This document shows, piece by piece, positions 15,765 through 44,004 of a DNA stretch of 64,000 nt. The stretch lies in assembly GCA_965205675.1 (NCBI GenBank), contig OZ242186.1, positions 160,001 to 224,000 on the forward strand, given 5' to 3'. Within the stretch, counting starts at the first letter, position 1. Each line of letters opens with the position of its first letter. The stretch is from Nitrosopumilus sp. Lineage in GTDB: Archaea > Thermoproteota > Nitrososphaeria > Nitrososphaerales > Nitrosopumilaceae. The position numbers and the translations under genes are program-made. The notes under the pieces are model-generated. The model saw only the letters and a list, made by a program, of their open reading frames with translations, had not been told where the DNA came from and did not search any database.

Positions 15765-16253
15765 TTACTTCGTTCCAATTTTTAGTATAATCTCCTCTAA
15801 AATACTTTGATTCTCTTTCATAATTTGTGTTAAATGATATTCCGCACCGTATTCTTTTTCGGCCTTTGTAACAAGCTCATTTTTTGCAAGAATTTTGACA
15901 TGGTGAATTACGGTTTTGTGATCTAAACTCAGGACTGTTGCAATCTTGTTTGCATTCATTGGGGTTTCTTTGATTAAATTGAGGATTTTTGCTCTGTTTA
16001 CACCGCCTCTTGTACCTGCAATAATTGACCAAAGTACCATTTTAAATCTTGGATTTGGTCCGCTTTGAGCACTTTCTGTTCCTGAAAATGAAAACAGTTC
16101 TTTTGGAACAAATCTTGAAAATGAAAATACAGATGAAGTTATCATTCCAGTAAACACTAATTGTTCAGATTTGGTATCTGATATAAAAAATTCCTTTTGG
16201 GAGTTTTTGGTGCTATTGAGTAGATATTTCTGCACTGCCAAATAAAACACCAA
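15765..16253 (-). CDS. ArsR-like winged-helix regulator (true start uncertain)
   Basis: GTRGGVNRAKIL..PMNANKIA..LDHKTVIHHVKIL; paralog of 35234. Confidence 0.8.
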   Translation of the reverse strand: MVFYLAVQKYLLNSTKNSQKEFFISDTKSEQLVFTGMITSSVFSFSRFVPKELFSFSGTESAQSGPNPRFKMVLWSIIAGTRGGVNRAKILNLIKETPMNANKIATVLSLDHKTVIHHVKILAKNELVTKAEKEYGAEYHLTQIMKENQSILEEIILKIGTK

Positions 16254-16875
16254 AGGCTTTACACCAAATCAATACTTTGTTGTATTTACTTAGATCTGTA
16301 TCATTTGGAATCTCATAGTTTTGATTGCCACTGTTTGCTTTGAGTGTACCTAAATTCACAAAGTCTGATGCATTATCATCAGTTGACAAGTAAACATACA
16401 AGTCTGGACCATTAGTTGATTTAAAATTCTCTAATCTTAGTATGGTACTGCTATCTTCTAATGGAATTGTAAATGCGTCTCCTTGTGCATCATGAATACC
16501 ATCACCAACACCAACAAATGTTCCTACATAAGACATTGGAATCTCATCTTCCATCATAGCATCATCTTCCATCATAGCATCATCTTCCATCATAGCATCA
16601 TCTTCCATCATAGCATCATCTTCCATCATAGCATCATCTTCCATCATAGCATCATCTTCCATCATAGCATCATCTTCCATCATAGCATCATCTTCCATCA
16701 TAGCATCATCATCTTGAGCTGTAATGGCATCTTTGTTTTTTATTTCAGATTGAATTATCGCACCAGGAGGTATTGCTTCATCAATACTTGATTCTGTAAA
16801 GTATGGAGATAATGCAAATGCTGAAACTGCACCTACAACTATTATAGCAATTGTAATTACTACAAATTTGTTCAT
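16213..16875 (-). CDS. DM13 domain protein with Met-rich acidic linker
   Basis: HDAQG, NGPDLYVYL, LGTLK..GNQNY and IWCKAFGVLFG DM13 motifs; signal anchor starts MNKF at 16875. Confidence 0.88.
   Translation of the reverse strand: MNKFVVITIAIIVVGAVSAFALSPYFTESSIDEAIPPGAIIQSEIKNKDAITAQDDDAMMEDDAMMEDDAMMEDDAMMEDDAMMEDDAMMEDDAMMEDDAMMEDDAMMEDEIPMSYVGTFVGVGDGIHDAQGDAFTIPLEDSSTILRLENFKSTNGPDLYVYLSTDDNASDFVNLGTLKANSGNQNYEIPNDTDLSKYNKVLIWCKAFGVLFGSAEISTQ
16545..16706 (-). repeat. Perfect tandem repeat, 9 x 18 bp encoding DDAMME
   Basis: Unit CATCTTCCATCATAGCAT on the + strand, read directly. Confidence 0.97.
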
Positions 16876-16997
16876 GATAAAATGATACAGTTTTGGTATA
16901 TACCAACTTTTCCAGTTTTGACCCCAATCTTTAGGCGTAAAATACCTGAATCTATTCATCGTAAGGTAGTTTAATACGATTTCATTGCCAGAATCTA

Positions 16998-17525
16998 ATG
17001 GAACTTTTTGATTCTTTCTTGATATGGATTGCAAATTTTTTAGGAGACCATCTCTATGAAGGAATTTTTCTAGCAGCGTTACTTGAAACTATAGTTCCAC
17101 CAATTCCAACACTTGCAATATTCCCAACTGCGGGATTTTTAGCATCTCAGCAAGGCATCACAATATTTGGATTAATTCCCATGATAATTCTTGGCGCAAT
17201 TGGTGCTACAATTGGAACATCTGCAATTTATCTAATCGCATTAAAATTTGGACGAGTTGTTTTGTTACGTTATCTAAAGAATATAAAAATAAATGAAAAA
17301 AAATTAGAACGAGTTGAAGTTTGGTTTGAAAAATATGGTGACAGGGCAGTATTTTTAGGAAGGATGGTTCCAGTAATGAGAGAAATGATTTCAATTCCTG
17401 CAGGATTGTTAAAAATGAAAATTCCTAAATTTGTATTATATACATTTGCAGGTTCTTGTGTTTGGTCTTCTGCAACAATTTTGTCTGGATATTATTTTAG
17501 CGAGGTTTTAGGGCTTGTGCCATAG
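16998..17525 (+). CDS. DedA family membrane protein
   Basis: LET..PPIP, WFEKYG..VFLGRMVPVMR..ISIPAG. Confidence 0.92.
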   Translation: MELFDSFLIWIANFLGDHLYEGIFLAALLETIVPPIPTLAIFPTAGFLASQQGITIFGLIPMIILGAIGATIGTSAIYLIALKFGRVVLLRYLKNIKINEKKLERVEVWFEKYGDRAVFLGRMVPVMREMISIPAGLLKMKIPKFVLYTFAGSCVWSSATILSGYYFSEVLGLVP

Positions 17526-17946: not shown

Positions 17947-18499
17947 AAAACATCTTTTAAGAAAGAAACATGATAAATTTGAACATCATATCAAAATTAC
18001 TTTAATACAAGATTAAAATGTTTATTAGAATATAGATCTCATCTACAAATTAACAACATGTGTTCAAATCTGTTAAAATTTGAATATTAAATATTCTTTG
18101 AGAGTTTATTTCGAATCTAATTTAATCTGTTTCATTATTCATCTCTATCTTATGATCTAAAACTAAAATACAAAGTTACATTGAAGTTCAAATTTAATTT
18201 ACAACGTACAAAAAACTGCGTATTGTGATGTACAAGAAATACTGTGTTTTTAGATTACTAACAATTAGATGGGTTGTGCAATTACAGGTAAAACTTAACC
18301 TTTCATTGTAATTGATTTTAAAAATGATATTGATTGTATTGTAGATAAAATTATTAAAAATGTATGAAAATGGAAAAATATTCAACTATCTGAAAAAGAT
18401 AGATCAGATACAAAAATAACTGAATAATAAAATCGATCTGTTGAAAACCGCTACTAAAACATATATCTATGTGAAATCTTTAAAAACATTTGCACTCTT

Positions 18500-18690
18500 T
18501 TGCAACACATGAGAATGGCTACCGCTCGAGATGATCCCATTCATTTTCAAAAGATGAAACCGGACACATATCTATTCGAGGATCTCCCTCAGTACCATTC
18601 TTCATCCATTTATCAGAACCATGCCGCAGTTACAAAACGAGGATCTCCCTCAATATGTTTAACGAGGATTATAGTTCTGATCATAATGTT
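18500..18690 (-). ncRNA. Putative bridge/seek RNA of IS110 #1
   Basis: Stem ATCAGAAC/GTTCTGAT and stem GATGAA/TTCATC, each enclosing an identical TGAGGGAGATCCTCG hairpin; loop segments match element junctions; RNA ends are approximate. Confidence 0.75.
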
Positions 18691-18693
18691 TCA

Positions 18694-19803
18694 TTATGCA
18701 TTTTTGATGCACTGGTAAAATGTCATGTTGTTTTTTAACATCCAGTAAATTATTCTCAACAGTTTGGATGCTGCTGCCACTGCAGCTTTTGATGTCCCCC
18801 TCTTTTTTGCAAGACGTTTGTAAAAATTTGTAATGGTGCTGTTTTTTGCATATCTTACATGAGAATGTACTGCCTCCACCAGAACCCAGCGTAACATGCT
18901 ACTTCCTCTTCTTGTTATGGAACCATGGCGTATGGTGTCAGCTGAGTTTCTCACCGATGGTACAATTCCTGCATATGAACACAGTTTGTGAGAATCTGAA
19001 AATCTTTCGATATTGTCAATTTCAGAGGATATGGTTAATGCAGTGAATCTTCCAACACCAGGTATTGATTCTAAGAGTTGTGCGTTAGAACCATGTTTTA
19101 GAGCATCCTTGATTCTCATGTCTGACTCTGCGATTCTATCATTGATTGATATTATCATCTTGAGATATCCATCTATTCGATAGTCATCTAATCCCAACAG
19201 TTTGTGCACATATGAATCAGAAAATGCAGTTCCTGGTATCTTGATTGCATTTTGTAAGGTTATACTGTGAATCAAATTTTTCATCCTTGTCCTGTTGCGG
19301 ACTAGTTTGGTTCTATATCTCACCAGTTGTCTTGTTTGCACGGTATCTTTTTCTGGTACATGACAAGATGAGATGTATCCTCCTCTTAGCAAATCTGCCA
19401 AGATGTGAGCATCAATCTTGTCAGTTTTTTTCTTTGCTGCTGCAATTGCTTTTGTGTGATATGGGTTTGATAGTATTACATCAAATCCTAGTTCGTCTCG
19501 CAGAAACCTAAACACGCCATACCAGACAGATGATGATTCCATTACACATTTTGAGTTTTTTGGGATTGCAGAAAATACTTTTTTGATATCCTCTCTGGTG
19601 TTTGTAATTTTTTCATTGAATAATGTATGTCCTTTATCATCCATTGTTTCGACCTGTAAGAATTCTTTGTGCAAATCAATTCCGACATAGGTCATGGGTT
19701 TTGTCTTTCTAGTCCTAATGATTTTCTTTGGTTTTTTCTTGGAGGTGTATCTTTTAGAAACTATAGAATCAGCAGTACCATCTAAATTTCGTTGTTTATT
19801 CAC
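18694..19803 (-). CDS. IS110 family transposase (DEDD recombinase), intact
   Basis: VGIDLHK, MESS, KTDKIDA, SIPGVG, SYAGIVPSVRNSA. Confidence 0.95.
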   Translation of the reverse strand: MNKQRNLDGTADSIVSKRYTSKKKPKKIIRTRKTKPMTYVGIDLHKEFLQVETMDDKGHTLFNEKITNTREDIKKVFSAIPKNSKCVMESSSVWYGVFRFLRDELGFDVILSNPYHTKAIAAAKKKTDKIDAHILADLLRGGYISSCHVPEKDTVQTRQLVRYRTKLVRNRTRMKNLIHSITLQNAIKIPGTAFSDSYVHKLLGLDDYRIDGYLKMIISINDRIAESDMRIKDALKHGSNAQLLESIPGVGRFTALTISSEIDNIERFSDSHKLCSYAGIVPSVRNSADTIRHGSITRRGSSMLRWVLVEAVHSHVRYAKNSTITNFYKRLAKKRGTSKAAVAAASKLLRIIYWMLKNNMTFYQCIKNA

Positions 19804-19929
19804 ATATGGTTACACTAGAATACCAAAAAAATACTCTTCTCATGCGTGTGACATGTAATTTGGGATCATCAATATCAGTAAAAGTATTAGAATGCTCAAA
19901 AATCGATTTCCTAGAAATCATCTGTAAAA

Positions 19930-20010
19930 CTAAAGCAGAAATGAATTTGATGGATTTAAAAGAGATGACAAGCATGAAAATACATGCTGTCACAAATGAT
20001 AATGGATTGC
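19930..20010 (+). pseudogene. IS5-family transposase fragment
   Basis: FDGFK../MKIHAVTNDNGLP resembles the IS5 'G.K.H..VD..GLP' motif. Confidence 0.4.
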
Positions 20011-20150
20011 CAGTACCAATACCTGTTGAATTTAGCAAATAAAACATGATTTTTTCAGTTAAAGCTAGATTTTCTAGTCATGTGGCAAAATCTACGTCTT
20101 TCTGAGATTCAAGTCCTACATGTAAATCTCAAATCCCAATTTCTGCACCA
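20006..20150 (+). repeat. att-like end: degenerate tRNA 3' end plus ~130-bp arm homologous (inverted) to 48587-48717
   Basis: TCAAATCCCAATTTCTGCACCA; shared GAATCTCAGAAAGACGTAGATTTTGCCACATGACTAGAAAAT. Confidence 0.75.
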
Positions 20151-41927: not shown

Positions 41928-42026
41928 TACAAGACAGAAACAAGAGTTTGTTGTGATATCTCAGAAATTATTTGAAATTAAATTCAATGAAAGAAGAGAT
42001 TTTGTCTGCAATTACGCAAGAGGTCT
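41928..42026 (+). mobile_element. Second right-end fragment of the ISL2-like element
   Basis: Inverse homolog of 35989-36095, ending AATTACGCAAGAGGTCT. Confidence 0.8.
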
Positions 42027-42548
42027 ATTGGTGACAATCTCAACATGTACTTTTCCCTTTCTTTTCAATATACCAAATACAATTGTCTTGTTCTTGGCAC
42101 CTCTGCCACGATTTCCCTTTCTTTTTCCTCCAAAATAGGCCTCATCAGCCTCAATCTGACCCTTTAGAACATCATCTGTTTTGGATTGTTCTTCAAGTAT
42201 TGAGAATCTCATGATGTCAAAAGAATGCAATGCGGTAGGATAACTAACACCAACTTCTTTTGCTGCACGTCTTGCACTAATCCCAAGATCAAATAGTTTG
42301 ATTAGAACCAATCATTTTGGATAATCAATATTGATGATACCAAACTGTGTATCTGAGAATGGTTTGTAGTTTGTCTTACATTTACTGCATCTTAAATTCC
42401 CTCTGCTCATCAGATAATATTTTGGAGAATCACACTTGGGACAACATACAGAACTTGTACTGTTGAATCTTTTACACAGAAATTTTAATGATGTTGATTT
42501 ATCTGAAACTATTTTGGATAACTCAATGATATTGATAGTTTTTTCCAA
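42027..42548 (-). pseudogene. IS1595-family transposase (stop at 42312-42314, 3'-truncated)
   Basis: CPKC..CSKC zinc ribbon; EADEAYFGGKRKGNRGRGA; probable left end at 43876-43925, beyond the IS110 insertion. Confidence 0.88.
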
Positions 42549-42557
42549 TAACTATAT

Positions 42558-43671
42558 GTGAATAAGAAAGCAAGGAAATCAGATAGCATAAAAAATGAAT
42601 CTAGTTCCAAGGTTCGTAAATACTCGGCTCCAAAAAAGATTACAAACAAACAGATTAGGAAGAAACCAAAGAAAGGCATGTTTGTGGGCATTGACCTGCA
42701 CAAGAAGTTTCTTCAAGTAATAAATGGATGATGCAGGCAAAGTATTACAAAATGACAAAGTGGATAACACTCATGAATCTATCAGGAAGCATTTTGCAAA
42801 AATACCAATTTCTGCAAATATTGTAATGGAATCCTCATCAGTCTGGTATGACACGTATCGATTTCTCACAGATACTTTGGGATACAAAAACGTCACACTC
42901 TCAAACCCATATTTGACAAAGGCAATTGCTACATCAAAAAAGAAAACAGACAAGATTGATGCCAAGATATTGGCAGATCTTTTACGAGGAGGATACATTG
43001 CCACATGTTATGTTCCAGACAAAAAGATTGTACAACAAAGACAGCTTGTAAGATATAGGAAAAAACTAATCCAATGGAGAACATCTGTCAAGAATTCAGT
43101 TCATGGAATATTGTTACAGGAAGGAATCAGGATTCCAGGAGTTACATTCACTGAAACATACAACAGAAGACTCAAGGCACTAGGAGATTACAGAATAGAC
43201 GGATTCTTGCAACAAATCAGCCACCTTAATTTACAGATTGCAGAGATTAATTCCAAAGTGTATGCTGCTGTAAAAGTTAATCCTGATGCAATTTTGATAA
43301 ACTCGATTCCGGGAATTGGGCATTATTCTTCGCTTGTCATTGCATCAGAGATTGCAGATATTGAGAGATTCAATGATTCCCACAAACTGTGTGCATATGC
43401 AGGAGTTGTACCATCAGTTAGAAACTCTGCAGATACAATACACCATGGCAGAATAACAAAAAGGGGAAGCATGACATTGAGATGGGTTCTAACAGAATGC
43501 ATACACACTCATGCAATTCATGCCAAGGATAGTGACATTACAAAATTTTACAATCGCATTAAAAAGAAAAGAGGATCATCCAAAGCTGCAGTAGCTGGTG
43601 CATCAAAGATCCTGAGGGTGATTTATTGGATGTTAAAGGAGAGGAGAGAATTTGTACAAAATTATAGTTAG
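42558..43671 (+). pseudogene. IS110 transposase with frameshift near 42720
   Basis: FVGIDLHKKFLQV is in a different frame from MDDAG..(42724); 2 nt missing relative to element #1. Confidence 0.88.
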
Positions 43672-43830
43672 GACTGCAAGTCGCGTTGTAATTATTGAGG
43701 GACAAGGCCTCGTCTAATAACTGCGAACAATCCTAACTAGGATGAAGATAGCATTGAGAGAATAGTCTCGTATGGATACATGTCTGCCATCTTTTGATTG
43801 AAACCATTCTCTAGCGAAAGCCATGCCCTG
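43665..43830 (+). ncRNA. Putative bridge/seek RNA of IS110 #2
   Basis: Stem TAGTTAGGA/TCCTAACTA with GAGG/CCTC hairpin; second GATG/CATC loop with GAGA/TCTC hairpin; co-linear with #1; RNA ends are approximate. Confidence 0.8.
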
Positions 43831-44004
43831 ATGTATAGAAAGAGAGGAAATGTATAAAAACAATTCACATGGATAATTACATAAAATTAATTGGGGGTAA
43901 TGGGGGTAATAGGTTTACAATCACCTAAAAAAATATCTTAGGTCTCAAAGATTATAGAACTATCATGAGCATCATTTTAATACATCATTTCTCAAAGAAT
44001 CCTG

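Follow-up and report, generated by a model that had tools for sequence, protein, structure and literature searches.

Does the transposase gene on the minus strand of this Nitrosopumilus sp. stretch (contig OZ242186.1; 64,000 nucleotides (nt), called the window throughout) belong to an intact insertion sequence (IS) that carries its own guide RNA, and do the guides of that RNA match the places where the element sits? An earlier note, made from the letters alone, had placed an intact IS110 element at 18455..19820 and had joined it with a second element of the window (element 2) into a natural orthogonal pair of guide-programmed recombinases. The segment 18465-19812 is very probably an intact, probably mobile, IS of the IS110 family and IS1111 type, with a DEDD/Ser recombinase guided by an RNA of about 145 nt that is encoded 3' of its gene. 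The protein family, the catalytic residues, the ends, the RNA fold and the co-variation of the guides with flanks and ends were all observed directly.

Ends and copies of the element

The host genome (2.01 Mb, one contig) gave 54 tblastn matches to the transposase of the window element, which is referred to as copy A of family 1; element 2 belongs to family 2, and a family 3 is described below. Positions are those of the window unless given as genome positions.

18465-19812, minus strand: whole IS, family 1 copy A, about 1348 bp, counting the T common to both junctions
19799-19806, minus strand: left subterminal inverted repeat TATGTGAA, 8 nt, 100% complementary to 18468-18475
18468-18475, minus strand: right subterminal inverted repeat TTCACATA, pairing with the left repeat
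18694-19803, minus strand: transposase open reading frame (ORF), 369 amino acids (aa), from GTG 19803 inside the left inverted repeat

Full copies of family 1 number three (A; B at genome 1157627-1158983; C at about genome 482509-483865), and a fourth copy, D/E, is split by an insertion of ~6.5 kb with an overlap of ~9 bp. DNA identity among the three full copies was 99.1-99.3%, the span was identical in the full copies and the split copy, and all four carry the same guides. All of them carry ...GTAACCATATGTG on the left and ...TTTCACATAGAT on the right, and the sequences diverge beyond. The insertion that splits D/E occupies genome 1403286-1409825, at a site equivalent to window 19538-19546. 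Several other multi-copy elements adjoin copies B and C, in a genome that is very rich in insertion sequences.

Paralogous empty sites were used to fix the ends. Copy B lies inside a repeat that is present in 11 further, unoccupied copies reading ...GCAATGTTTGTGTTTAGTG; where the unoccupied repeats have GCAATG-T-TTGTGTTTAGTG, copy B has GCAAAG-T-AACC...ATAGA-T-TTGTGTTTAGTG. Copy C occupies the tip of a different multi-copy element, whose end (..AGTAT) is restored by removal of the IS. Because of these empty sites the limits of family 1 could be set from AACCATATGTG to CACATAGA, with a T common to both junctions and without duplication. For copy A this gives G19813-T19812-A19811-A19810 as the left junction and A18466-T18465-A18464-T18463 as the right one, so that the element stands where the earlier note had put it and its limits move to 18465-19812. 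Family 2 has two exact empty sites (..CCAATAATTACA..) that share ATAA, and in the four-base frame (c1-c4) of these sites the donor junction is ATAA in all three families. A target-site duplication is absent, since empty and occupied sites share only T (family 1, copy B) or ATAA (family 2). The same empty sites ruled out two other assignments, namely that GTAACC or AATAACT to the left of the repeat belongs to the target and not to the element, and that the core is a duplicated AT or GT.

Between the subterminal repeats (8 bp) and the ends of the element lie 6 nt on the left and 2-3 nt on the right. The non-coding stretch from the stop codon (18694) to the right end (18466) measures 228 nt; the 118 nt on the left are probably coding. 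From these ends the circle junction is predicted as CACATAG-ATAA-CCATATGTG and the empty site of copy A as CTAGTGT-ATATGTTTT, and the sequences put forward in the earlier note for both agree with the ends taken from the paralogous empty sites. The check for an empty site of copy A in relatives came out negative: the only matches of the 751-bp right flank were short repeats, present in 5 of the 40 relatives, an orthologous locus was not found, and genome G041, which holds two copies with 99% identity (L028 and L029), gave no match to the copy A flank.

Transposase

The conserved core of the transposase begins at ATG 19695 (333 aa). Pfam assigned both domains above cutoff, PF01548 (DEDD_Tnp_IS110, N-terminal; 99.4 bits, 2.3e-28) and PF02371 (Transposase_20, C-terminal; 82.8 bits, 2.3e-23), and the NCBIfam profile NF033542 ('IS110 family RNA-guided transposase') matched residues 39-359 of the 369-aa frame with 250.5 bits against a cutoff of 140. 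Matches in PDB were ISCro4 (9t56, 6.6e-12) and IS621 (8wt6, 8.7e-12), the only relatives with a solved structure and both of them distant, with end-to-end alignment, and D7, E53, D92, D95 and S251 (in GIVPSVRNSA) align with the catalytic residues of ISCro4 9t56. The frames are open in three of the three full family 1 copies, and the element is intact in the sense that the earlier note had claimed, with DEDD and Ser motifs in place. The catalytic roles of the five residues are presumed here to be those given in the IS621 literature.

Predicted two-domain RNA encoded 3' of the gene

The first ~145 nt of the 228 nt that follow the stop codon hold a predicted RNA with a target-binding domain followed by a donor-binding domain.

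18545-18688, minus strand: predicted bridge RNA or long seekRNA, ~145 nt (covariance model R1, 126.7 bits, E 3.8e-24)
about 42552-43872, plus strand: element 2 (family 2), broken, with ORFs at 42558-42731 and 42724-43671 and an intact RNA at 43660-43799

The scaffold of domain 1 reads CGTT-AAACATAT-TGAGGgagatCCTCG-TTTTGT-AACTGCG (18664-18625, minus strand) and that of domain 2 GGATGAAG-AATGGTAC-TGAGGgagatCCTCG-AATAGATATGTGTCCGGTTT-CATCT (18607-18552, minus strand). Domain 1 folds into an outer stem AUCAGAAC/GUUCUGAU (18681-18671 with 18622-12), an inner stem CGUU/AACUGCG and, enclosing the hairpin UGAGGgagauCCUCG, an internal loop AAACAUAU ... UUUUGU. In domain 2 the stem GGAUG/CAUCU closes an internal loop AAUGGUAC ... 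AAUAGAUAUGUGUCCGGUUU, and the hairpin enclosed there is identical to that of domain 1. The scaffold motif occurs 25 times in the genome, in the three families and in two family 2 variants with other loop-1 arms. As the earlier note had seen, both domains of the scaffold are common to the window element, on its minus strand, and to element 2, and the stem that it described as fully compensated between the two is a real helix, the outer stem, with ATCAGAAC/GTTCTGAT in family 1 and TAGTTAGGA/TCCTAACTA in element 2.

For a wider comparison 80 related loci were fetched from public genomes, and covariance model R1 was built from 15 sequences. It gave 40 matches in 52 sources and reached transposases that are about 45-55% identical. 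In the alignment of the 40 matches 96.0% of cells were paired, against 36-48% when partners were slid by 1-3 columns, and double (compensatory) changes were present in 15 of 30 base pairs, against 1-4 pairs in the slid controls; none of 500 shuffles reached the observed values. The two-domain fold appeared when the right ends were folded and aligned, which had been proposed as a check. Rfam held no family for this RNA: at the gathering threshold only two tRNAs were returned, and matches with E up to 10 were at chance level (11-17 bits).

Target guides and flanks

The internal loop of domain 1 was compared with the sequences on either side of the element.

18653-18660, minus strand: target loop 5' arm AAACAUAU, 8/8 complementary to 18457-18464
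18457-18464, minus strand: right half of the target, ATATGTTT, a flank that differs among copies A to D
18632-18637, minus strand: target loop 3' arm UUUUGU, in the sense of the left flank, with the shared T as its last position
19812-19818, minus strand: left half of the target, CTAGTGT, whose last base is the shared T

These flanks are not part of the element, because they differ between copies. The pairing of an arm with the right flank, claimed before, holds exactly: AAACATAT (18660-18653) is complementary to ATATGTTT (18464-18457), starting 2 nt past the right end. On the left side TGTA had been equated with left flank plus core; TGT is indeed target, and the A belongs to the element. The left match of copy A is TGT only (suffix 3), and the six left flanks of family 1 type that were seen have nothing but GT in common. 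The arm order is top-strand match 5' and bottom-strand match 3'.

For each R1 match the loop arms were read from the model alignment and the junctions from the locus. Rows from short own-genome loci (L023, L024, L025, L027) were dropped, as were duplicates of arm plus flank and matches that had no CACAT[AG][AG] right end (L069, L091, L060); on the left side seven matches without the left-end motif were dropped (L074, L049, both of L072, L078, L069, L091). Copies B, C and D/E were added by hand, which gave 31 unique cognate pairs. The right arm (5' arm, reverse complement) shared a longest common string of at least 6 nt with its own flank in 21/31 pairs (mean 6.6), against 21/876 non-cognate pairs (mean 3.5). 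The left arm (3' arm, counted back from the shared T) gave a run of at least 5 nt in 15/31 (mean 4.0; matches of 5-6 nt), against 9/870 (mean 1.3). The right-arm score of copy A was 8, a value reached by a single non-cognate pair (1/876). The guides therefore track their own junctions across the family, as had been suggested for the two window elements.

Changes of guide are visible among close relatives. In L072 (82% aa identity) the scaffold and the 3' arm are kept and the 5' arm is AGACAACU, adjoining the flank AGTTGTCT; L028 and L029 (99% aa identity, in another genome) have the arm AAACACAU adjoining ATGTGTTT. The same single-base difference concerns window 18655, where contigs of all four of four public runs carry the C variant, as do L028 and L029, and all four own-genome copies carry U. 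Only the U variant matches the copy A flank ATATGTTT perfectly. The C variant suits the flanks of D/E (ATGTGTTT) and B (TTGTGTTT), with which the resident RNA can pair only by including a G:U pair. Because the copy A flank is perfect for U only, at least one jump took place after the C-to-U change, unless gene conversion spread the U.

Donor guides and element ends

The internal loop of domain 2 was compared in the same way with the ends of the element itself.

18592-18599, minus strand: donor loop 5' arm AAUGGUAC, in which AUGGU is complementary to the left tip ACCAT
18557-18576, minus strand: donor loop 3' arm, containing AUAGAUA (18575-18569), a same-sense match to ATAG of the right end followed by ATA

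The 3' arm is AUAGAUA in family 1, with the right end CACATAG-ATA, and AUGGAUA in families 2 and 3, with CACATGG-ATA; arm and right end agreed in every element where both were readable. What the earlier note had read as equal to the right end (ATAGATA here, ATGGATA in element 2) thus consists of the last four right-end bases plus ATA. Closely related family 3-like elements include both states of the 3' arm, and in two of them from another genome (L063, L086) arm and right end have both switched to the A state. On the 5' arm AUGGU goes with the left tip ACCAT and AUAG with ACTAT (CTAT), which supports the pairing proposed for the window elements, and L058 is an independent second case of AUAG. 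An 8-mer in the coding region, GTACCATC, was considered as a partner of the donor arm and set aside as chance, since family 2 cannot encode an equivalent.

We infer that the RNA is made, is bound by the recombinase and directs recombination. The recombinase would be guided by the RNA encoded directly 3' of its gene, with domain 1 acting as the target internal loop in the arm order of IS1111 seekRNAs. In the internal loop of domain 2 the 3' arm AUAGAUA would read right end plus core and the 5' arm AUGGU would pair with the left tip; given these matches to both ends, domain 2 would recognise the joined ends of the excised circle. Crossover would take place at the T (perhaps TA) common to both junctions, without target duplication.

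Families 2 and 3 in the same genome

The family 2 copy in the window has a TAA that parts the N-terminal catalytic Asp from the remainder of the protein, and the same TAA is present in 8 of 10 full-length family 2 copies; the other two are intact. Broken family 2 copies with intact RNAs fit a supply of protein in trans. Family 1 and family 2 proteins are 61% identical. Their target arms are wholly different (AAACAUAU/UUUUGU versus GUAAUUAU/UCUAAU), and so are the sites; their donor arms are one base apart each, and scaffold and both hairpins are nearly alike. Two family 2-like copies (genome 754463-754571 and 1720523-1720629) have altered loop-1 5' arms, GAAAUUUA and AGAAUUUA, and the one at 754463-754571 adjoins the flank AATTTCAG, which matches its own arm.

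Family 3 is found at genome 62313-63665 and nine other places, none of them inside the window. Its loop-1 arms, UUCACAU and AAACUAU, correspond to AACTAT^ATGTGAA, a sequence that forms the left end of family 2. In the ten copies listed the right end adjoins the family 2 left end ATGTGAATAAG, with one exception at a family 1 left-end fragment (genome 954407-954612); right ends of family 3 type were also found inside left ends of family 1 type, in contigs of two runs and in locus L072. Family 3 aims at the left ends of families 1 and 2, and the families therefore interact and are not insulated. The family 3 transposase is encoded in two overlapping frames in all copies (residues about 2-107 and 89-330), which may be a programmed frameshift or a shared defect.

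Other features of the window include an ORF with nine tandem DDAMME repeats (16213-17034, minus strand) and one member (41929-42027) of a dispersed repeat of ~105 bp with 85-93% identity, which occurs at more than 30 other places in the genome.

Alternative explanations

The 3' region could be merely a structured 3' untranslated region or terminator, with the target picked by the protein and the complementarity due to chance or to plain inverted repeats. The single-sequence folding z-score is only -2.0, and one inverted 8-mer is not significant by itself, as 30 such pairs occur by chance in 1.4 kb; the significance of the pairing between guide and flank rests for this reason on its position and on the co-variation throughout the family. 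The loop arms shift with the flanks across relatives while the stems stay paired, the flanks lie outside the element, and an RNA-guided mechanism is experimentally established for the family (PMC11208160, PMC11187229), all of which makes this explanation extremely improbable. An element that is structurally intact and yet immobile in this genome, in which the matches between guide and flanks record an ancestor with the C-variant guide, deserves more weight and is still rather improbable. The insertions number just four, for three of their flanks AAACACAU is at least as good a match as the resident AAACAUAU, and 11 GTAT[AG]TGTTT sites are still unoccupied; the contigs of four public runs showed no joints over 18200-20060, so that neither a circle junction nor an empty site was seen in them, and no junction of right end, core and left end was found by a pattern search of the genome and the fetched loci that needs a complete left end and is blind to truncated junctions. 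The check proposed for the circle junction was in this respect negative. Such an explanation has to account, however, for copies that are 99.1-99.5% identical with open frames in all three full ones, for the presence of the U variant in all four, and for the position of copy A at a site perfect only for U, with the jump, or else gene conversion, that this entails. Several other observations weigh against a mobile, RNA-guided element and lower confidence in it. Among the public sequencing runs listed as containing the stretch none was an RNA run. The left-target match is short (suffix 3, 2, 2 and 3 in the four insertions, 2 and 4 in L028 and L029), and the pairing register relative to the crossover varies, family 2 beginning 2 nt earlier than families 1 and 3; the earlier note had entered both as caveats, and rightly. 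The right-arm score was 5 or less in 10/31 cognate pairs, and copies B, C and D/E fit the right arm in only 6-7 of 8 positions or need a G:U pair. L032 is the sole exception to the rule for the donor 5' arm, and the co-variation of the donor arms consists of two states per arm with few independent switches. The alignment in which pairs were counted had been fitted to the model, and the relatives in it are not independent.

A separate proposal, that family 1 and element 2 are a pair with orthogonal function in which each transposase is limited to its own RNA, donor ends and target, looks doubtful. Such insulation would agree with target arms that are wholly different, with landing sites that differ, with donor arms and ends that differ in a matched way and with proteins of 61% identity. 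It is opposed by donor arms just one base apart on nearly the same scaffold and hairpins, by the broken state of element 2 and of 8/10 full-length family 2 copies, and by the insertion of family 3 into the left ends of both families; bacterial IS1111 seekRNAs are moreover reported to be able to act with transposases that are not close relatives (PMC11187229). With three families and two guide variants the genome contains more than a pair, and the 'natural orthogonal pair' could not be upheld as it had been stated.

Possible junction promoter and N-terminal extension

Two further features concern the expression of the element and a possible additional contact of its RNA.

18478-18486, minus strand: outward-facing TATA-like box TTTTTAAAG in the right end, upstream of its inverted repeat
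19773-19783, minus strand: copy of the donor 5' arm, AGATGGTACTG, inside the left end, in codons of the N-terminal extension (LDGT)

A TATA-like hexamer was present upstream of CACAT in 28/28 unique right ends, GC-rich relatives included. The box starts 11-13 nt upstream of CACAT in 25/28; in the other three the scan took an earlier hexamer, and the box is visible at the same spot. In the predicted circle its first T would lie 30 nt before GTG 19803. The transposase frame is in frame with the left-repeat GTG in 38/41 unique relatives and open in 37, the in-frame rows differ in length by multiples of three, and the other two frames have 1-8 stops in all rows except the 15-nt L075. The resulting N-terminal extension of 36 aa (19696-19803, minus strand) is basic and lies outside the NCBIfam profile, which starts at residue 39. 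Leaderless archaeal promoters follow a spacing rule, by which the distance of 30 nt was judged; it would fit such a promoter formed only when the ends are joined. For bacterial IS1111 elements a junction promoter co-transcribing the mRNA and the long RNA has already been proposed (PMC11187229).

The copy of the donor arm in the left end has the same sense as 18592-18600, is 7-10 nt long and lies 30-45 nt inside the left end. It shares at least 7 nt with the donor arm of its own element in 19/25 unique elements, against 12/332 non-cognate pairs (ATGGTAC, ATAGCAT, ATAGTAA and ATGGTAT among the pairs), and co-varies with the donor 5' arm despite a change of the encoded residues (DGT versus DSI). 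It might reflect either a further place on the left end at which the RNA docks or a decoy in the mRNA. Taken as a clade, these elements may possibly combine archaeal junction-dependent expression with an extra guide contact that is absent from the IS621 and ISEc11 models, a proposal that we hold tentatively and as less probable than its opposite. If it is true, full-length enzyme and co-transcribed RNA would be made only after excision.

Relation to known systems

The mechanism is already known, and the main finding is confirmatory. Membership of IS110 is shown by both domains, by the catalytic D, E, D and D with the Ser of G..P....S(G/A) and by insertion without duplication; features of the IS1111 subgroup are the subterminal inverted repeats within 7-17 bp and the longer non-coding region downstream of the gene; and the two-loop fold with compensatory changes, the target arms and the co-varying donor arms are those of a bridge RNA or seekRNA. 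An archaeal set is added in this way to the bridge and seek RNA recombinases, although archaeal members may already be given in the supplementary tables of PMC11208160 and PMC11187229. Its natural diversity comprises about 20 distinct target-guide versions on one scaffold, among them a guide that varies in one base (C to U), with landing sites that differ accordingly, and it offers a case in which one insertion sequence is aimed at another by its RNA guides. The natural series is useful as ready-made specificity data for programmable recombinases, and it helps to account for the fact that some Nitrosopumilus genomes carry a very high load of insertion sequences (PMC13343696).

With IS621 of the IS110 group (Durrant et al. 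2024, PMC11208160) the element shares a target loop and a donor loop that each read both strands around a short core, and a recombinase with DEDD plus Ser. It differs from IS621 in that the RNA lies in the right end and not the left, the arm order is reversed and the element has longer inverted repeats; where IS621 has a CT core, the element seems to have T or TA within ATAA, and the protein similarity is distant (E 8.7e-12). Position in the right end agrees with the IS1111 elements, for 93% of which a bridge RNA was predicted there in the same paper.

IS4321 and IS5075 (IS1111 family) reportedly target the terminal repeats of Tn21-type transposons. Family 3 resembles them in being aimed at the ends of other mobile elements, and differs in that its victims are its own relatives in the same genome and that RNA arms which explain the choice are visible.

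The closest likeness is to the IS1111 seekRNA elements ISEc11, ISPa11, ISKpn4 and ISPst6 (Siddiquee et al. 2024, PMC11187229), in which the top-strand match also lies 5' of the bottom-strand match and for which natural reprogramming has been described. Shared with these are a transposase of about 330-370 aa with G..P....S(G/A), subterminal inverted repeats, a long non-coding region 3' of the gene, a target-only domain that is short (here about 77 nt) and contained in the longer RNA of ~145 nt, and natural re-targeting among close relatives. Unlike them, the present element has an archaeal host (Nitrosopumilus), a predicted RNA that has no sequence-level family in Rfam, and a frame that reaches a GTG in the left repeat, with a basic extension of 36-66 aa outside the NCBIfam profile; a TATA-like box would take the place of the bacterial junction promoter.

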